A DNA stretch of 64,000 nucleotides from a virus (taxonomy: Duplodnaviria; Caudoviricetes): IMG/VR virus record IMGVR_UViG_3300031911_000003, positions 1-64,000 of that record. One strand, written 5' to 3'. The notes beneath the pieces were generated by a model. It saw only the letters and a list, made by a program, of their open reading frames with translations. It did not search any database and was not told where the DNA came from. Positions 4,383-60,287 of this stretch are shown here, piece by piece (position 1 is the first letter of the stretch; each line of letters opens with the position of its first letter). Position numbers and translations under genes: made by a program.

Positions 4383-4973
4383 ATGAGGCACCCTGGCGCA
4401 GAGTGGCTGCCGTCGCCGAACTTCTCGCGGCGCAGAGAACCGGTACGTTTCATTACATGTCATCAGACGGACGGGCAACCTGACGTCTACCGCGCCGCTG
4501 AGTCGCACTGCGACCCAAAGAACCAGAAGTCGGCGCACTTCTTCGTCGGCCGAGCCGGCGAGGTGCTGCAGCTCGTCGACACCGACGACTGCGCCTGGCA
4601 CGACAGCGGCCGGAACGGCGAGAGCATCGGGATAGAGTTCGTCGCGCGACAGCCAGGCGAGTTCGACGACAGGTGGCACAAGCTGAGCGGCGGCACGAAG
4701 CAGGCTCTCGGTGCGCGGAGCACTGACGATCGCGACCCGGGGCTGCCACTGACGGAGCCACAGCTCGCTGCGGGTGCCAAGCTCGTCGCCGCGCTGCTCC
4801 GGCATCACGGCCTGTTGCTCGAAGCGGTGCGCCCGCACTGCAGCTCGCCTACGACCACGCACACGAAATGCGGCGCCGACAAGTCTGCGGGCGGCATCTG
4901 GGATTGGACTGATTTCAGACGGAGGATCGATGAGGCGCTTACTGCTCTCGCTACTGAACCTGCTCAGGGCTGA
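4383..4973 (+). CDS. endolysin, N-acetylmuramoyl-L-alanine amidase (Amidase_2)
   Basis: WLPSPNFS, ITCHQT, SAHFFVG, AWH, SIGIE, VRPH, KCG zinc-amidase motifs. Confidence 0.9.
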   Translation: MRHPGAEWLPSPNFSRRREPVRFITCHQTDGQPDVYRAAESHCDPKNQKSAHFFVGRAGEVLQLVDTDDCAWHDSGRNGESIGIEFVARQPGEFDDRWHKLSGGTKQALGARSTDDRDPGLPLTEPQLAAGAKLVAALLRHHGLLLEAVRPHCSSPTTTHTKCGADKSAGGIWDWTDFRRRIDEALTALATEPAQG

Positions 4974-5000
4974 CCGCGGCGGGCTGTCGGCCTGCTACGC

Positions 5001-5747
5001 CTAGATCGACCAGGGCCAGACGAAAAGATCCGTCGGAAGTGGACTGATGTAGTTCGGATTGATGTGACGCTCGATGCCCGGATACGTGACACTCCTGACT
5101 CTGAGCTCCTCGTATCCTCGAGTGAGCTGCTCTCTGACGACCTGTCCGTTCGGCTGTGGCGCCTGCCACTGTGGCAGTGTGGCGATCAAGAACCAGTTCG
5201 GATCCGAGACGCCCATGTTCGTGAAGAAGCGGTGAATCGGCGGTCGCTGCGCGTACTCGAGGGCGTGTGGGCCGAAGAGCGCCTGATCGTCGAGGTTGGG
5301 CCAGACGGCCTCGCAGGCGTAGCCGTGGATTTGGTTACGCCTGAAGTTCGTCGAGTTGAGCGACACTCGATTCGCCAGCCACCCTCCACTGCCCGGCACA
5401 TCGGTGCTCGGGTTCGGACTCGTCCCGTCGAAGTAGAAGATGGGCCCGCAGATCGGGGTTTGTGTCGCACCGTCGCGGTCGATCCAAGGCGCTGAGCAGC
5501 CGGGTGTGTAGAAGCGTTGTAGGTTGTGAAGCGCTGCGAGCACTGGCGCTTCCGTCCCGTCGTGCGCCGCATCGGTATGGATGGCCGGCGCATCGAGCTG
5601 CGCGGCCAAGACGAGCAAGTTCTGCCAGCACGCCGCGTTGAAGGGCACGTCGTAGTCGCTCGAACAGCAGACGATCGGCGGCCCGCGGAAGGTGGCCTGC
5701 GTCACCGTTCCGGCAATGACCGCTGCGCCGCGCATGTTGGAAAGCAT
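5001..5747 (-). CDS. hypothetical virion/tail-associated protein
   Basis: Last gene of the minus-strand tail-fibre cluster, closely following 5750..6502. Confidence 0.5.
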   Translation of the reverse strand: MLSNMRGAAVIAGTVTQATFRGPPIVCCSSDYDVPFNAACWQNLLVLAAQLDAPAIHTDAAHDGTEAPVLAALHNLQRFYTPGCSAPWIDRDGATQTPICGPIFYFDGTSPNPSTDVPGSGGWLANRVSLNSTNFRRNQIHGYACEAVWPNLDDQALFGPHALEYAQRPPIHRFFTNMGVSDPNWFLIATLPQWQAPQPNGQVVREQLTRGYEELRVRSVTYPGIERHINPNYISPLPTDLFVWPWSI

Positions 5748-5749
5748 GA

Positions 5750-6502
5750 TTAGAGCGTGAAGCCGACGAGAAAAAGAGAGAGATTGGCGGCGGAATTGGA
5801 CACCAAGTAATCGATGGTGCCGAGGTCTTGCGCTTCGAGCTGCATGGAGTAGCCAGCCGTCGCGCCCGCATCGAACAGGATCTGACCGTTCGTTGTCTGA
5901 ATCAGGATCGCAGATCGCAACGAGCCGTCCGCGACGAGACTCGCGATCAAGCGCACCTTAGAGCAGTTTGGCGGTCGGAGAGCACCATAGCTGACGGAGG
6001 TAAAGGTGGTGGCTGTTCCTGCAGCCAAGATGCGCGTCGAGATGTAAGCTCCAATGTAAGTAAACTCGAGTTCATTTTGGGATTGTGGTATGACGTTTCC
6101 TGACGCATTGGTGATGAACGTGCTGACCCACATAGATGAATCGTCGCCGCTGCGGTAGTTCAAGCCGGCGTCGGGTCCGTCGACCGTGACGGTGAAGGTG
6201 AGTGTGTTTGCCACGATCCGAGCGTAGACCCAGTAGCGGGTGCTGTTCGCGAGGCCGCCGCTAAGCGCGGCGGGGTTGATCGTCGTCTGGGTGAGGTTCG
6301 CGAGCGTGCGCCAGGCCGTCCCGTCGTACACCTGGATGGCGCCGAGCGGCTCGATCACCATCGACGTGTTGCTGACGAGCCGCGTGCGGCGCTTCACATC
6401 GAGATGTGCGCTCGCTTGCGAGCTACCCGTGTCGGCTGGCTCTTGTGACGGCGGCGAACAAGCCAGAAGCGTGAGAGCCAAACTTAGGATGTAGGTTCGC
6501 AT
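5750..6502 (-). CDS. lipoprotein carrying a tail-fibre-like beta domain (paralog of 6504..7388)
   Basis: Lipobox LLAC; end-to-end similarity to the upstream gene (VKRR, SM.I.PLG, TRY.VYA, VSTF.T..SG, IDYLV.N..A.LS....GFTL). Confidence 0.65.
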   Translation of the reverse strand: MRTYILSLALTLLACSPPSQEPADTGSSQASAHLDVKRRTRLVSNTSMVIEPLGAIQVYDGTAWRTLANLTQTTINPAALSGGLANSTRYWVYARIVANTLTFTVTVDGPDAGLNYRSGDDSSMWVSTFITNASGNVIPQSQNELEFTYIGAYISTRILAAGTATTFTSVSYGALRPPNCSKVRLIASLVADGSLRSAILIQTTNGQILFDAGATAGYSMQLEAQDLGTIDYLVSNSAANLSLFLVGFTL

Positions 6503-6503
6503 G

Positions 6504-7388
6504 TTAGAGCGTGAACCCCGCTACGTGGATCGACAGGCTGGCGTTCGCGTTGCCAACGAGGTAATCGATTTGGAGCCCATTCACCAATGCATAAGGCACG
6601 AAAGCCGACGATGTGATACCCGTCGCCGACGTCTCCTGAATGAACACGTTCGTTGGTGTAGAAGTCCGTAGGGTCGCGGTGGTATTGGTCGTAGACGACC
6701 AACTAGGTCGCAGCAATGCGATCTGCGCCTCCGCTGGTATGATTCCAGCCAACGATACAGTTGCAGCGACGGTTGAATTACCTGCGTTGAGGACTCGGTT
6801 ATTGATGGAGTATTCAAAGTACCTATATTCCCCATCTACTTGAGTGTATTCGAGAAGAGCTCCGGCAGAAGAGGTGTAGAACGTCGAGACGAACATGTTG
6901 TCCGTCGTAGTCGAATCGTAGTTGAGGCCGACTTCCGGCGCGTTAGTCGAGACGCGGAAGCCCACGGCGCCACCGTTGTTGTAGGCGTAGACGTAGTAGC
7001 GCGTCAGGTTCGCAAGCGAGCCGCCGGCTAGCGCGGTCGGATCGATCGTCGATGCGGTAAGGTGCGGCAGCGTCACCCAGTTGCCGCCGGAGGTGACCTG
7101 CACTCCACCGAGCGGTTGAATGATCATGGAAGTCGACGAGACGCCTTTCACACGGCGCTTCACGCCGCCGCCGTGCAGCATCTGGCGCGCGCCGACGAGG
7201 CCGTTGACGAGCGGCTGCAGTGCGAGATCGCGCATGTTGGCTGAGCTCAGCGGGTCGAAGTTCGCCGGTCCCTGGATGGTGTCGGCGGCGGGGAAGGCTC
7301 CGTTTCCTACAAGGGGCGTGGTCATATCTGGAGATGGTTGCTCGCAAGAGGCCAGGGCAAGTAGAAAGGCAAGGGCTACGCGGTTCAT
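6504..7388 (-). CDS. tail-fibre-like protein with N-terminal lipoprotein signal; second start at 7325
   Basis: GGAGG SD before ATG 7388, lipobox LASC; internal ATG 7325 has ACCATC 8 nt upstream; follows the baseplate wedge gene. Confidence 0.65.
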   Translation of the reverse strand: MNRVALAFLLALASCEQPSPDMTTPLVGNGAFPAADTIQGPANFDPLSSANMRDLALQPLVNGLVGARQMLHGGGVKRRVKGVSSTSMIIQPLGGVQVTSGGNWVTLPHLTASTIDPTALAGGSLANLTRYYVYAYNNGGAVGFRVSTNAPEVGLNYDSTTTDNMFVSTFYTSSAGALLEYTQVDGEYRYFEYSINNRVLNAGNSTVAATVSLAGIIPAEAQIALLRPSWSSTTNTTATLRTSTPTNVFIQETSATGITSSAFVPYALVNGLQIDYLVGNANASLSIHVAGFTL

Positions 7389-7474
7389 ATTTGTTCTCCT
7401 CCGATTGGAATCGGAAGAGTAACAGCTCTGGCGAACCGTTAACAGCTAGGGTTTCTACTAGTTCTGCTCGGTAA

Positions 7475-8230
7475 CTAGGGGTCGAACCCTACGACTTCGG
7501 GCGGTACAAAGCCTCGCTGCGCCCAGTGCGTCTCTCCGACGACGACGCGGTGCAAGTCGGCCTCGTCGCCATCAGCCCACTCGCCGACGTCCCAGCCGGG
7601 TTCGGTGTCCCAGAGCCGGCCGGCGCCTAGCCATATGTACAGGTACGTCGGAGTGTCGTGACCGGCGCGGAAGGTGCGCAGCAGGCGGCGGACTTGCTGC
7701 ACTTGAGCCTGCGTCGCAGTGGCGTCCCAGAGGCCGACGTCCCAGCCGGGTTCGGTGTCCCAGTAGCGCTTTTCGATCGGCAACGGCGGCTGGAGCAGCA
7801 CGTCGAACTGCGCCCAGACGTCACGGGCGAAAGCGTTGACGTAGGGCCACGGGCTCGGCGGTGGTGCTGGCGCATCGTAGCGACGCTTGACGACGACGTT
7901 CAAAAACCCCATGCGGCTGAGGTTGTATTGGTGGACGTGCTGCGAGCCGGCGACGCGCCACAACTCCCAGGCGGTGCGCAGGACCATGCGGTAGTCCGGC
8001 TCTGACTCGCCGATCGCCTGTTCGACGCCTCGCTCGGCCGCGATGTAGACGAGGCCGTCGGACGGTGCGAATTCCGGAAAGCGCGCGAGCACCGCCTGAT
8101 AGACGCGCTCGAAGCTCTCGTCCATGAGCGCGCCGAGAGTGCCCTGCCAGGCGTCGCCCGCCTCGTCCTTCAAGAAGGGCTTGTTCACCGCGACGCGGTA
8201 CGCCTGGAAGCTCTGGTCTGCGACAGCCAT
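7475..8230 (-). CDS. baseplate wedge / tail formation protein (P2 gpI / Mu gp48-like)
   Basis: APSDGLVYIAAERG, YRMVLRTAWELWRVAGS, WD-rich repeats; tail context. Confidence 0.65.
   Translation of the reverse strand: MAVADQSFQAYRVAVNKPFLKDEAGDAWQGTLGALMDESFERVYQAVLARFPEFAPSDGLVYIAAERGVEQAIGESEPDYRMVLRTAWELWRVAGSQHVHQYNLSRMGFLNVVVKRRYDAPAPPPSPWPYVNAFARDVWAQFDVLLQPPLPIEKRYWDTEPGWDVGLWDATATQAQVQQVRRLLRTFRAGHDTPTYLYIWLGAGRLWDTEPGWDVGEWADGDEADLHRVVVGETHWAQRGFVPPEVVGFDP
7583..7763. repeat. 31-bp direct repeat (7583-7613 and 7733-7763) encoding WDTEPGWDVG twice
   Basis: Identical gccgacgtcccagccgggttcggtgtcccag in both copies. Confidence 0.9.
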
Positions 8231-8355
8231 CTATGCGAGGATGGTCCCTCACGGTCGAAAAGAACAGGAGGCGACGCTGCGCTGGCTCGATTACGGCTTA
8301 ACTACTTCCGCGCCGCACAGGACGCTGGCGCGGAAGTCTTATGCAGAGTGGCTGG

Positions 8356-8523
8356 CTACTCGCCCTTTACGACCTTGGCGCGCGGCTGTTCGTTGAGCTC
8401 GCCGGCTTCGCTCTGCTCGTCGTCGTCCGTCGGGCGGGGCGCCGAGTTCTCGCCCGGCTTGGTTCCACCCTCGTACTTGCCCTTCTCGCTGTTCGGGATC
8501 TTGGGATCGGTGTTCTGTGCCAT
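8356..8523 (-). CDS. small hydrophilic protein
   Basis: GGAG SD before ATG 8523; MAQNTDPKIPNSEKG... Confidence 0.5.
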   Translation of the reverse strand: MAQNTDPKIPNSEKGKYEGGTKPGENSAPRPTDDDEQSEAGELNEQPRAKVVKGE

Positions 8524-8576
8524 GATATGGCTCCTTTCAATCTGAAGGCTGGCTTCGGAGAGCGCGGCGCGCAAGC

Positions 8577-8906
8577 TCAAATCTTCTCGACGACGTAGCG
8601 GCTGTGCTCTGTGGCTATGAGGTAGACGCCCGATCCCTCGCAGCGCCACCTCAGCACGAGGCTAGAAGACCACCCGTCGTCAGACTCGCCGTAGCGGAGC
8701 GCGAGCTGGCGGGTGGCGCGGAGGTATTCTTCGAGGTTGGTCCCGTCCCAGAGCTCAAGTGAGCCGCCCGGTCGGCGGAGGGCCGCCTCGCCCTCGCGCG
8801 TCGGATCGATCCTGATGTGTCCCGAATAGTGCTCTTGTGTTCTCGAGGAGACGACGCCGAGATGTCTTACTCGGATGCGCAAAGTCGAAGGATTAGCTGA
8901 GGGCAA
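8577..8906 (-). CDS. hypothetical protein
   Basis: ORF directly following 8893..9924; start uncertain. Confidence 0.4.
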   Translation of the reverse strand: MPSANPSTLRIRVRHLGVVSSRTQEHYSGHIRIDPTREGEAALRRPGGSLELWDGTNLEEYLRATRQLALRYGESDDGWSSSLVLRWRCEGSGVYLIATEHSRYVVEKI

Positions 8907-9924
8907 CGCCGTCGTTGCTGATCACGCGCCAGCGCAGCGCGCCTGCGAGCTGCATGCCCTCGAGCACGATCATGTCGCCGGCTGCCCCGAAGGTCATGAC
9001 GGTGTTGCCAGTCTGATTTAACGCCTGCGCCGACGTGACGACGATGTCGCCGATGTAGACGTCGCAGATGAGCGAGGCGCGCTGCCCGACGTAGGTCGGG
9101 ATCGCGAGAGTGCGCGTCTCGGCTCCGGCGCTCGTCATCGGCACGTGGCCGTCGGAGGTGACAGGGATCGCCCCGCCGTTGCCGGGATCGGCGATGCGGT
9201 TGGCGTTTGTCGCAGCGGCCTGCTTGCCCTGGAAGGTAAACAGGCCGCTCGGTGGCTTCATCTCACCGGTGCCAAGCGACAGGTCGACGGCGGTGGTTCC
9301 GGCCGCGCAGGACAGATTCTTGTTCGCAGCGAGTACGAGCCCCGCGCCGCCGCTGTCGATGCTCGCCACCGCGACGCCGTTGGCGCCGAGCGTGAGCGCG
9401 GCCCCGGTGCCGGCGCGGACGGTGCTCGCCTTGCCCGCGGCTCCGAGCCAGGTGAGAGCGCCGGTCGACAGGACCTGATCGTCGGTGCCGCCGAGCGAGA
9501 AGCTGCGGTCAGCGCTGAGGTCGCCGCCGCCCGTGACGCCGCCCGAGGTGGTGAGGTTCCGGCCTGCCGGTACGGTGCCGCCCGCGGCCGGCGGGGCGGA
9601 GAGGCTGTTGATCTCGGCGTCGCCCTCGAAGTCGCTGCCGCCGTCGAGCAAGAGGTGATACCACTCGCTGGCACCCTCGGCGGGCAGCGTGAAGCTGTAG
9701 TCGGTGTTGCCCTGCTCGCCCTTGGCGAGGTTCATCTCCACCTGCTCGCCGATCGCGTTGGTGACGCGGAACCAGTCGCCGGTCGCGTTCATGCGGATGA
9801 GGCAAAGGGTGACCTCGCCCGCCGTCGAGCGGGCAGAGACGCGCAGCGCAGTTCCGGTGATCTGGACGGCGTCAGTAGTTACCCCGTTGGCGGGGAGAGT
9901 CGTTCGCGGTGTGACGTTTCCCAT
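8893..9924 (-). CDS. virion structural protein (Gly/Ala/Thr-rich, fibre/decoration-like)
   Basis: Start ATG 9924 with ACCATC 8 nt upstream; GGVTGGGDLSADRS fibre-like motif. Confidence 0.6.
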   Translation of the reverse strand: MGNVTPRTTLPANGVTTDAVQITGTALRVSARSTAGEVTLCLIRMNATGDWFRVTNAIGEQVEMNLAKGEQGNTDYSFTLPAEGASEWYHLLLDGGSDFEGDAEINSLSAPPAAGGTVPAGRNLTTSGGVTGGGDLSADRSFSLGGTDDQVLSTGALTWLGAAGKASTVRAGTGAALTLGANGVAVASIDSGGAGLVLAANKNLSCAAGTTAVDLSLGTGEMKPPSGLFTFQGKQAAATNANRIADPGNGGAIPVTSDGHVPMTSAGAETRTLAIPTYVGQRASLICDVYIGDIVVTSAQALNQTGNTVMTFGAAGDMIVLEGMQLAGALRWRVISNDGVALS

Positions 9925-10882: not shown

Positions 10883-12088
10883 CTAGATGCTCTGCAGTAC
10901 GAGCTGCGAGGTCAGGACTGGCACCTGGTTGTACTGGATCGCCAGGTCCTGCGTCCCGCCGTTGATCTTCACGTCCGTCGCGTCGAGCACCACGCTGTTT
11001 GTCGTCCCCGCAGGTAGGCTTATGAGGCCGAGCACCCGCTCGTAGCTTACCCGGCCGAGCCTGCCGCCGCCGATCAGGAACGACCCGAACCAAGTGGCGA
11101 GGTTCCGGTTCACCGTGGCCAGGAACGCCGCGTTGTTGTAGGTAGCCTCGACGATGACCGTGCCGGACACCGTCACTGCAAGATTGACGGCGCTCGTCGC
11201 GGCGCAGCGCGCCGACTCCGATATGTTCGGGCCTCCCGTCTGCGTCGGCGAGAGGGCCAATTGGACTGCGGCTACTACCGACGGCGCTAGTGCTCCCGCC
11301 TCTCCCGCCACGATGACATCGACCCGCCCCGGATCGGTGAGGTCAAGGTTCGTCTCGACGCGGACGCGCGTCACCTCTTGACTGGCGTTGCGCGCGGCGG
11401 CTTCGTAGCCGGACTGCACCATCGTCGTGGGCTTAAACTGGCTGAGCGTCCCCCACTTCGTCACGTTGCGGCGCTGCAGGCTCGCGTCCTCCTCGGCTGG
11501 CGTGCCGCTCGCGCCGTACTGGTCTGCCTGCCAACCGGAAGGATTCGTCACCGTGACGCCCGCGAGGGTGCCGCGCACCCAGGTGTCGATCTCGCCGACG
11601 CCAGCGTTGTAGTCGCTGCCGACGTCCGCCGCCTCGACGTACACGCGAGCACTGCCACCGCGGGGGATCGTCACCGGATCGACCCCATTGGGCGCGACGC
11701 CTGAGTATTCCAGCCCACCGATGCCCACAGAGAACCCCACAGACAGCGGCGAGAACTTGAACGGCCCGAGGCCCCGCGGATCGGACAGCGTCACAAACCC
11801 ACTGGCCTTCACCCCAAGGAAGCGGAAGTCGTCAAAGAGCTGCTCGCTGAGGTTATCGAGGCCGGAGTCGCTCGCGGTCTGGTTGTAGCCCTGCGCGACG
11901 ACGTAGGCGCCGGCCTGGTTCTCCTGGTCCTGCGCGCGGCTCTCCACCTCGACGAGCGCGACGGGCAGCGACTCGGGTGCGTAGCTCTCGATCGCGGTGA
12001 AGCCAGCCGCCTCGAGCCTGTCGAAAGTCTCCTGTTTGACCTCTTCGTAGGTCGGCGGATTTAGTAGTTGCTCGACGGTAAGAGCCAT
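10883..12088 (-). CDS. baseplate J-like (Mu gp47) protein
   Basis: GLDNLSEQLFDDFRFLGVKASGFVTL, EEDASLQRRN..KW, PGRVDVIVAG. Confidence 0.85.
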   Translation of the reverse strand: MALTVEQLLNPPTYEEVKQETFDRLEAAGFTAIESYAPESLPVALVEVESRAQDQENQAGAYVVAQGYNQTASDSGLDNLSEQLFDDFRFLGVKASGFVTLSDPRGLGPFKFSPLSVGFSVGIGGLEYSGVAPNGVDPVTIPRGGSARVYVEAADVGSDYNAGVGEIDTWVRGTLAGVTVTNPSGWQADQYGASGTPAEEDASLQRRNVTKWGTLSQFKPTTMVQSGYEAAARNASQEVTRVRVETNLDLTDPGRVDVIVAGEAGALAPSVVAAVQLALSPTQTGGPNISESARCAATSAVNLAVTVSGTVIVEATYNNAAFLATVNRNLATWFGSFLIGGGRLGRVSYERVLGLISLPAGTTNSVVLDATDVKINGGTQDLAIQYNQVPVLTSQLVLQSI

Positions 12089-58873: not shown

Positions 58874-59212
58874 GAACGATCACGCAGAGATCTGAAGGGA
58901 ATTGGAGCCGCGGCGGAGTCCGTGCGGTTCGCTAAACCGAAGGTGCAGCGCCGGGTCGCGAAGAATCCGCACTACGCCGATCGCTTCCGCGGGGCGCACG
59001 CGGCGAAGGTCGCAGCCGCGCAGAAGCGACGCGCCGAACTGCTCGCGAAGCAAGCAGAAGAGGCGCGCAAGGCCCAAGAGAAGGTCGCAGCTTCAAAAGA
59101 GACGGCAGATAACGCTCGAATCGTACGAAGCCTGACCATCCGCTCCACTGAACGCTTGACAGGTCGTACCCGAATCTGCAACAGTTCGAGCTGTGGAAAC
59201 CACGCAGCATGA
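58870..59212 (+). CDS. basic hypothetical protein with a probable frame break near 58890
   Basis: GGAGG + ATG 58870 stops early, while the long ORF lies in another frame. Confidence 0.35.
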
Positions 59213-60287
59213 TCGCAGTAGTACGTTCGCCAGATACTTCAAGCGCTGGCTCGGGCGCCGCCTAGTCGAGCGCCCGAAGCCGCAGCCTCCCGCGCCACCG
59301 CCGAAGCCCAGCAAGCACGCGCGCCTGCGTGCGGAGCACAGGCACCTCCACATCTCGGCCGATCTACGAGCCCGCGCGACGAGCAGGCGACAGCTCGCGC
59401 CAATCGATCCGCAACTCGCGCGCATCATCGCAGAGCGCCGGATGGGTCGGCACCCACGCACCCAGAAGCCTCACCCACTGCCCGCGAGCTGCCTGAAGAA
59501 GTGCGGCGTCCGAGACTGCGCGCACGCGCAACCTCGCGCACTGCTCAGACTCCGCGACGAGTACGCCGCCGCGAACTACGATCTAGCGCATCGAGCGGCG
59601 GACAAGCAGTGGCAGCGCAACCAGCACCTCGAGCGGGAGATTGTGCCGTGCGTCTACCACAACACCGCCGAACCGAAGAAGTGCCGCTGCCGAGGGCGCC
59701 GGGAGTACCTCTGCCAACCCGACCTCGAGCATCTCGCGTACATCGGTCTGCTCGACGCGATCCTCTACTTCGACAAGGACAAGGCCGGCTGTCTCTCGTC
59801 TTACGCTGTCCACAAGATGAAGTTCTCGATGCTGACGCTTTTGCGTCAAACGCCTGTCTACTACCCGCCAGACCTGCTCCGCGACCGCCGAGACGTGGGC
59901 GCGCTGCGCAAGACTCTGTGTCGAGAGCCGACCGAAGCTGAGATGGTGGTTAAGCTGGCGGAGCGGGGTGCCTGCACTGCTGAGCGAGCGCGGCTCGCGA
60001 TGAACTGCTACTACGGCAATGAGCGGAAGAGCGTCGAGGAGCTGCATGAGCAGTACTTTGGTCGGACCTCGCGGGAGGATCGCCGCGCACGTAGGTCGCG
60101 CGGGGAGACGTTCGTCGAAAACCTGTCCATCGAGCAACCCCGCCGTGGAGAGGATTCAGACGGGGACGTGATCGAGGCCATTGCGTCGCTGCCCGCGGAG
60201 CTGCGAGCAGACGCGCAGAGGGCTCTCGGCGGGCGATCGAAGCTATCCGACGCCACTCTCGGCGCGCTGCGCGAGGCGCTGCTCTAG
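59193..60287 (+). CDS. sigma70-family RNA polymerase sigma factor
   Basis: DLEHLAYIGLLDAILYFDKDK..CLSSYAVHKMK (region 2), LCREPTEAEM (region 3), VIEAIASLP (start of region 4). Confidence 0.75.
   Translation: METTQHDRSSTFARYFKRWLGRRLVERPKPQPPAPPPKPSKHARLRAEHRHLHISADLRARATSRRQLAPIDPQLARIIAERRMGRHPRTQKPHPLPASCLKKCGVRDCAHAQPRALLRLRDEYAAANYDLAHRAADKQWQRNQHLEREIVPCVYHNTAEPKKCRCRGRREYLCQPDLEHLAYIGLLDAILYFDKDKAGCLSSYAVHKMKFSMLTLLRQTPVYYPPDLLRDRRDVGALRKTLCREPTEAEMVVKLAERGACTAERARLAMNCYYGNERKSVEELHEQYFGRTSREDRRARRSRGETFVENLSIEQPRRGEDSDGDVIEAIASLPAELRADAQRALGGRSKLSDATLGALREALL

Follow-up and report, generated by a model that had tools for sequence, protein, structure and literature searches.

Two products can be made from in-frame starts of a single phage gene, as with the S107/S105 holin/antiholin gene of phage lambda. 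Two-polypeptide endolysins are likewise translated from in-frame dual starts and share a C-terminus (PMC9430671). The products of these holin and endolysin genes stay in one compartment or pathway, and no switch from a virion protein to an exported lipoprotein is involved. A fibre-like gene, designated P0001, of an uncultured tailed phage from rhizosphere metagenomes appears to differ in this respect. P0001 lies in a stretch of 64,000 nucleotides (positions 1 to 64,000; hereafter the window) of the 75-kb IMG/VR record IMGVR_UViG_3300031911_000003, which is rated 61% complete. Features of the sequence indicate that this one gene probably gives rise to two isoforms, a cytoplasmic fibre that starts at the ATG at position 7325 and an exported, lipidated copy that starts at the ATG at position 7388.

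Among phage lipoproteins, Llp of T5 and Cor of phi80 and N15 resemble P0001 in that their genes are located with a receptor-binding gene. Llp blocks the phage's own receptor and spares the progeny from debris (PMC9586334). Unlike P0001, Llp is small, has its own gene, is unrelated to the receptor-binding protein (RBP) pb5, and acts through allostery from the periplasmic side; in the arrangement described here, the RBP itself or a duplicate of its head would take this part and would come from the same gene. P0001 is about four times larger than Llp and has a fibre fold, and no relation of sequence or fold between them was found, no direct comparison having been run. The layout of P0001 has a counterpart in Enterobacter cloacae, where a type VI secretion system immunity protein, Tli, is made both as a lipoprotein and, by way of internal starts, as a cytosolic form from one gene (10.1101/2023.03.28.534661). 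As in P0001, initiation occurs downstream of the lipoprotein signal, and Tli has its own function at each location. Tli differs in being the product of a bacterial immunity gene rather than a virion protein, and its internal starts were inferred from mutants; the abstract makes no mention of a conserved nucleotide element dedicated to the internal start and placed ahead of it (10.1101/2023.03.28.534661).

P2 gpH, the Mu gp49-type fibres, Mtd and Bd2133 are the fibres with which P0001 has traits in common, namely a position after gpJ/gpI, a trimeric build and beta-sandwich tips. P0001 differs from them in having no significant fibre match in Pfam or PHROGs and in being much shorter (~273 aa). 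We know of no report of a lipoprotein signal on any of these fibres, and no fibre or RBP that has both a lipobox and an internal start is described in the literature searched. A reading made earlier from the sequence only had known of no described case of such an arrangement; this holds for fibres within the literature searched and does not hold for the principle, for which Tli provides a bacterial precedent.

Two starts in one reading frame

P0001 is encoded on the minus strand, as are all of its features given below. The long open reading frame (ORF; 6504..7388, stop codon included) specifies the prolipoprotein form of the fibre-like protein, of 294 aa, and no further ATG, GTG or TTG occurs in this frame upstream of ATG 7388. 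A Shine-Dalgarno (SD) sequence, GGAGGAG, is located at 7396..7402 with a spacer of 7 nt to the ATG. Residues 1-15 of the protein, MNRVALAFLLALASC (7344..7388), begin with a positive n-region (R3), followed by a hydrophobic core free of charges and by the lipobox L-A-S-C, whose cysteine is at position 15 (codon 7346-7344). The signal satisfies a PROSITE PS51257-type rule for precursors of lipoproteins processed by Sec and signal peptidase II (positive n-region, uncharged core, lipobox of the form [LVI][ASTVI][GAS]C, and cysteine at 15-35), from which lipidation of Cys15 is predicted. The strong SD and the lipoprotein signal that the sequence-only reading had assigned to ATG 7388 were thus both borne out. 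Positions 6649-7501 are identical, with zero differences, in contigs of two different rhizosphere runs, and so the two-start arrangement is not an artefact of assembly; these contigs revealed no 5' ends near the starts.

The SD of the long start is part of a hairpin (7392..7424) in which its partner is an upstream CUCUUCC stretch. The hairpin has 10+4 bp and a folding energy of -17.7 kcal/mol (z -5.2), and none of 200 shuffled sequences folded equally well. Its likely effect is to damp or gate translation from ATG 7388. No such hairpin over the SD was found at the equivalent position in the related loci L006, L007 and L014.

The second start is that of Met22 (ATG 7325), which is in frame with ATG 7388 and lies 6 codons past the lipobox cysteine, after the linker EQPSPD (7326..7343). 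The ORF that begins there (6504..7325) specifies a signal-less fibre form of 273 aa, and its start is the canonical start of the family. The linker contains the element ACCATC (7333..7338). The sequence-only reading had reported this element before the in-frame ATG, as at the structural genes, which proved correct apart from the spacer, given as 8 nt and counted here as 7 nt (TCCAGAT). Each of the two in-frame starts of P0001 therefore has an initiation signal of its own, GGAGGAG for 7388 and ACCATC for 7325.

Of the 36 copies of ACCATC in the window, 16 have an ATG or GTG 6-10 nt further on from which an ORF of 100 aa or more begins. The 59 permuted hexamers used as a control precede a mean of 0.59, and a maximum of 4, such long-ORF starts; the association of ACCATC with ORF starts is not due to chance. 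Starts led by the element include those of the genes for baseplate J (12088), the gpI-like protein (8230), a fibre-like ORF (9924), a sheath-like protein (25320) and the Mu-like portal (51686), and it also heads the gene adjoining the major capsid gene. Canonical SDs precede only a minority of the genes in the window. To our knowledge ACCATC has no complementarity to the usual 3' end of 16S rRNA, and no conserved -35-like element was found within 45 nt upstream of it in the window. Given its distance from the ATG, ACCATC could be a -10-like box whose transcript is near-leaderless, or else a translation initiation signal of non-SD type.

Conservation of both starts

A profile search of 1.84 billion representatives yielded 2595 relatives of P0001 at E <= 1e-3 and 162 at E <= 1e-30. 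Family members are mostly about 280 aa long (270-290 aa for most of the best 150 representatives), and 98 of the best 150 start at the residue aligned with Met22. These 98 share the N-terminus M-[STAP]-T-x-x-T-P ... P-x-D-G-D ... N-A-A-S, and Met22 is the sole invariant column among 123 aligned sequences. In the related locus L015 an in-frame TAG stands just before the start region, and in L003 and L005 the stop codon of the upstream gene is 3-6 nt before the ATG, which shows that these members are truly signal-less.

The lipobox extension is present in 26 of the best 150 representatives (25 plus P0001). Its pattern is M-[RK]-hydrophobic-[AGS]-C, after which come a linker and, in every case, a methionine at the canonical position. 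The linkers range from 5 to 135 residues and have no conserved sequence, the other lipobox-bearing relatives are 23-40% identical to P0001, and the only columns invariant across all 26 are M1, C15, M22, P41, R130, Y134 and F170. The invariant cysteine and Met1 imply translation of the extension and selection for its function as a lipoprotein signal, while invariance of the internal methionine indicates that its codon is still needed as a start. The check for conservation of both starts that accompanied the sequence-only reading, according to which homologs without the signal or without the internal methionine would speak against it, thus came out in its favour, with 26 diverged representatives possessing both. 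In a family tree built with FastTree, the extension occurs in 28 of 62 rows of one half and in 1 of 61 rows of the other.

Lipobox-bearing genes were read as DNA in the window and in L006, L007 and L014. An SD-like sequence precedes the long start in three of the four, being GGAGGAG in the window, GGAGA in L007 and AGGAGG in L006; the corresponding sequence in L014 is purine-rich and weak. Before the internal ATG, ACCATC is found with a spacer of 7 nt in the window and in L014, where it is read as the codons x-P-S, and with a spacer of 6 nt in L007, where it is read as A-T-I. Occurrence of the same hexamer in two codon phases suggests that it is the DNA or RNA, and not the peptide, on which selection has acted. 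ACCATC also stands 7 nt before the start of the signal-less gene in L015, which suggests that the extension was acquired in front of a start signal that was already in place and intact. Both copies of the hexamer in L007, and two of three in L014 and L015, are placed 6-7 nt before ATGs, and the whole record from which L007 comes contains six ACCATC-N5-9-ATG sites versus none in the control. For the other lipobox-bearing representatives, ACCATC was inferred from the linker peptides only; 11 of the 26 linkers end in TI-x-x-M or PS-x-x-M, corresponding to ACCATC at +6/+7, a number with a binomial probability of 7e-14 given the dipeptide background.

A genome scan returned one related locus, binned to a Saccharibacteria metagenome-assembled genome, which was not trusted as a host assignment. 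No conserved stretch was found in the scan with alignment A3, no locus was confirmed in that with alignment A4, and a metagenome scan yielded only 2 loci.

Fold and oligomeric state of P0001

An AlphaFold model of P0001 built from the 123-sequence alignment has a predicted local distance difference test (pLDDT) score of 91.8. The model consists of the signal helix, an extended segment (residues 22-48), a long helix (49-71) and two beta domains. The extended N-terminal tail together with the predicted trimeric coiled coil (residues 49-75) is encoded by 7164..7325 and carries the fibre N-terminal motif common to the signal-less relatives. The two beta domains (residues 76-185 and 186-294; 6507..7163) are presumed to be the receptor-binding part, on the basis of the model and its fold matches. 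Residues 187-293 superpose on the fibre tip of Bdellovibrio Bd2133 (Z 10.1, root-mean-square deviation 2.5, 102 residues), and residues 76-214 superpose on the Bordetella phage RBP Mtd (Z 8.0). Foldseek searches with the same model gave only beta-sandwich matches of low template modelling (TM) score, such as Cry toxins and carbohydrate-binding modules, and a reading of these as kinship was rejected. A model built from 6 sequences scored poorly (pLDDT 62) and drew only weak Foldseek matches.

A homotrimer of residues 22-294 is predicted from three copies with a score of 0.97, the best of three controls scoring 0.00; in calibration, the mark applied to this score was reached by 20 of 30 solved pairs and by 1 of 23 single chains. 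At least 98% of contacts are common to the trimer runs, which have a pLDDT of 96 and show a heptad pattern of contacts over residues 57-71. Modelling supports, and does not prove, the assignment of P0001 as a trimeric short fibre or RBP. The family core motif (ST-R-Y-Y-V-Y region) also occurs in long ORFs (657-685 aa) of L011, L012 and L013, which resemble beta-helix tailspikes and carry it at the C-terminal end; this indicates that the head domain is a swappable module. Neither P0001 nor its neighbours P0002, P0003 and P0004 belong to a family in Pfam (E <= 0.1) or PHROGs (E <= 0.01), and tblastn of P0001 against a phage genome collection gave no match.

A lipoprotein-only paralogue

P0003 (5750..6502, minus strand) is a tandem paralogue of P0001 whose ATG lies one base past the P0001 stop codon (TAA-C-ATG), so that its start is coupled to that stop. 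Its product of 250 aa is 39% identical to P0001 from P0001 residue 76 onward and consists of a lipobox signal, MRTYILSLALTLLAC, a 20-aa linker and the two beta domains only. By eye, the signal has R2, an uncharged core and L-L-A-C, with the cysteine at position 15. Residues 22-75, which we refer to as the attachment domain, are absent from P0003, as are ACCATC and any internal methionine near the lipobox. Lacking the attachment domain, P0003 cannot be anything other than a lipoprotein. Within the 75-kb record, no family member except P0001 has an attachment domain.

In the family tree P0003 falls with P0001 and P0005, and two other sequences with a lipobox and no attachment domain, P0080 and P0120, fall with P0016 and P0025. 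These two separate groupings indicate that dual-form genes have given rise to lipoprotein-only copies on at least two occasions. Loss of the attachment domain from such copies and its retention in P0001 fit a P0001 that still serves the virion.

P0003 bears as well on whether the long form of P0001 is made at all. If P0001 encoded a fibre only, ATG 7325 would be the true start, and the upstream 63 nt would be untranslated or barely translated, with the hairpin keeping the SD shut. The sequestered SD (-17.7 kcal/mol) and the absence of the extension from most family members agree with this, and gene callers do sometimes choose the short form, as illustrated by a 276-aa member found within a 304-aa cluster whose members are all environmental. 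A rule-passing signal whose cysteine and Met1 are invariant in 26 diverged relatives, however, cannot persist untranslated. SD-like sequences stand before three of the four long starts read as DNA, the hairpin is absent in the relatives, and P0003 has the lipoprotein start and no other, and we regard a fibre-only gene as unlikely.

Genomic neighbourhood

The 75-kb record has a Mu-like portal, a Mu-like major head protein, a sheath and baseplate J. Directly upstream of P0001 is P0002 (7475..8230, minus strand), which has an ACCATC-led start and encodes a gpI-like (Tail_P2_I-like) baseplate wedge protein. It is 29% identical to the product of the gene following baseplate J in L005 (E 1e-11), and its nearest ESM Atlas clusters are Tail_P2_I (score 0.97, TM 0.74). 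The gene for the baseplate J-like wedge protein (10883..12088, minus strand), also ACCATC-led, lies upstream of both, and a gene of the fibre family follows the baseplate J and gpI-like genes in L003, L005 and L006 as it does in the window, with nothing in between in L003 and L005. The product from ATG 7325 had been described in the sequence-only reading as fibre-like and encoded after a wedge gene, and the family (a fibre or RBP family) and the Tail_P2_I-like gene just upstream are in accord with that description.

Two ORFs, 8893-9924 and 8577-8906 (both on the minus strand), are inserted between the genes for baseplate J and the gpI-like protein. The former is ACCATC-led and encodes a fibre-like protein of 343 aa that is rich in Gly, Thr and Ala and belongs to no Pfam or PHROG family. 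Between the latter, which encodes 109 aa, and the gpI-like gene is a gap of about 346 nt (8231-8576) in which there is no convincing minus-strand gene and which contains a 65-aa plus-strand ORF of high G+C content at third codon positions (GC3). GC3 is 0.70 in P0001 (6504-7388) and 0.74 in P0003 (5750-6502), versus 0.85 in the adjacent baseplate genes; the lower values of the two fibre-family genes fit horizontally exchanged receptor-binding modules. No Pfam family was found at E <= 0.01 for a further ORF of the window, 59193-60287 (plus strand).

Downstream of P0003 is P0004 (5001..5747, minus strand; 248 aa), which is coupled to the upstream gene (TAA-TC-ATG). It represents an unannotated family whose members occur alongside the fibre gene in relatives, with 38% identity across the N-terminal 150 aa, and a search of the ESM Atlas with P0004 gave no lead, the Atlas model being poor. 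Relatives of P0004 are located at 1653-2843 in L014, from a start at 1653 in L015, and at 7490-8569 in L007, all on the minus strand; those in L014 and L015 are ACCATC-led, encode about 395 aa and are divergent from the fibre gene.

Lipoprotein genes of other kinds were also noted near fibre genes. A small conserved one is found downstream of the fibre gene in L007 (5125-5430, plus strand) and L006 (4286-4591, plus strand); that of L007 is ACCATC-led and is followed by an ORF resembling cell-wall hydrolases, and this small gene may be part of a lysis cassette. Genes for Cys-rich lipoproteins adjoin signal-less fibre genes in L003 (6559-7044, minus strand), L005 (4517-4975, minus strand) and L014 (2918-3433, plus strand). 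Judged by these gene orders, envelope lipoproteins next to receptor-binding genes seem to be a recurring theme of the phage group.

The second fibre-like ORF invites the opposite simplification of P0001, in which the fibre gene was converted to one for a lipoprotein only, the internal ATG and ACCATC are non-working leftovers of its ancestry, and the virion uses another fibre, such as the product of 8893-9924. That ORF, lying between baseplate J and gpI and having an ACCATC start of its own, is a candidate for the replacement; P0001 has a strong SD and a rule-passing lipobox, P0003 shows that a lipoprotein-only state exists, and the extension is evolutionarily labile. Leftovers, on the other hand, would not be expected to include an internal methionine that is invariant in 26 representatives 23-40% identical to P0001, or an ACCATC kept in two codon phases. 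The long form of P0001 moreover has the whole attachment domain, which P0003, P0080 and P0120 have deleted, and no other family member in the 75-kb record has one, which makes a lipoprotein-only P0001 quite improbable. Still more doubtful, where both forms are made, is a different role for the lipidated one, whether as an envelope adhesin altering the lysogen surface, as a factor in lysis or release, or as a pool of fibre kept tethered to the membrane, for although the closest fold is the adhesive fibre tip of a predatory bacterium, small lipoproteins and a cell-wall hydrolase adjoin the fibre gene in L006 and L007, and translational coupling of P0003 and P0004 to the fibre gene would give late co-expression, nothing in this analysis tied the protein to lysis, and tailed-phage assembly is cytoplasmic, so that an exported pool cannot feed virions.

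A model for two isoforms

For the two-isoform gene, we envisage that the short form is initiated at ATG 7325 under ACCATC, the element found at the head of most structural genes in this phage, which is Mu-like and has a contractile tail. Having no signal, this form would remain in the cytoplasm, trimerize through the coiled coil of residues 49-75, and use residues 22-48 to join the baseplate next to the wedge proteins gpI and gpJ, to serve as a receptor-binding fibre. The long form would be initiated at ATG 7388 on transcripts arriving from upstream, using the canonical SD within the hairpin, and is probably a minor or conditional product. Following Sec-dependent export, lipidation on Cys15 and cleavage by signal peptidase II, it would present a trimeric head tethered to the cell envelope. 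P0003 would be a duplicate that has retained the exported role only. The lipidated heads would bind the receptor used by the phage itself, whether within the envelope or on its surface, as a result of which superinfection would be blocked and progeny would not be lost on debris. Occupation of the phage's receptor is the most likely role for the exported heads in our analysis. We infer that both forms are made, as well as their timing and the masking role.

Several observations weigh against this two-isoform model. There was no RNA run among the sequencing runs that carry the sequence. With regard to the long form, its SD is sequestered and it may therefore be scarce or conditional in this phage, and a scan of 4800-8400 revealed no sigma-70-like promoter for it on the minus strand and no terminator. 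A periplasmic lipoprotein, furthermore, may not reach a surface receptor. With regard to the short form, the product of 8893-9924 may be a second fibre, and the phage may not depend on P0001 for its virion. The relatives whose lipobox-bearing genes were read as DNA number three, and one of them, L006, has only a loose resemblance to ACCATC before the internal ATG rather than the exact hexamer. Five further linkers end in PS-x-M, which would leave a gap of just 4 nt between the motif and the ATG. Well-supported branches of the tree force at least 10 gains or losses of the extension, and retention of the internal methionine and motif could be due in part to recent inheritance rather than selection. 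Some of the calls of signal-less members may also reflect the choice of the gene caller.

Implications

If both forms are made, a single RBP would be used on the virion to find the receptor and, anchored by lipid, in the envelope of the infected cell. One practical consequence would be a warning for annotation, as whichever start is called conceals a second product. The ACCATC element, which can be found within a coding region, offers a handle on late-gene starts in this phage group. Lipoprotein-only duplicates such as P0003 could act as soluble or anchored probes for the receptor.

A wider proposal, which we advance tentatively and at less than even expectation, is that about one-sixth of the best 150 representatives routinely encode both isoforms, the virion fibre from a conserved, ACCATC-led internal ATG, possibly on a leaderless late mRNA, and the envelope copy from an SD-led ATG further upstream, that the exported role has repeatedly passed to duplicates lacking the attachment domain, and that the phage's own head is what blocks the receptor. 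The model, if true, would amount to a self-updating form of superinfection exclusion, in that a change in the specificity of the head would alter the blocker as well and no separate protein like Llp or Cor would be needed. It would also add N-terminal isoforms that switch location to phage biology.

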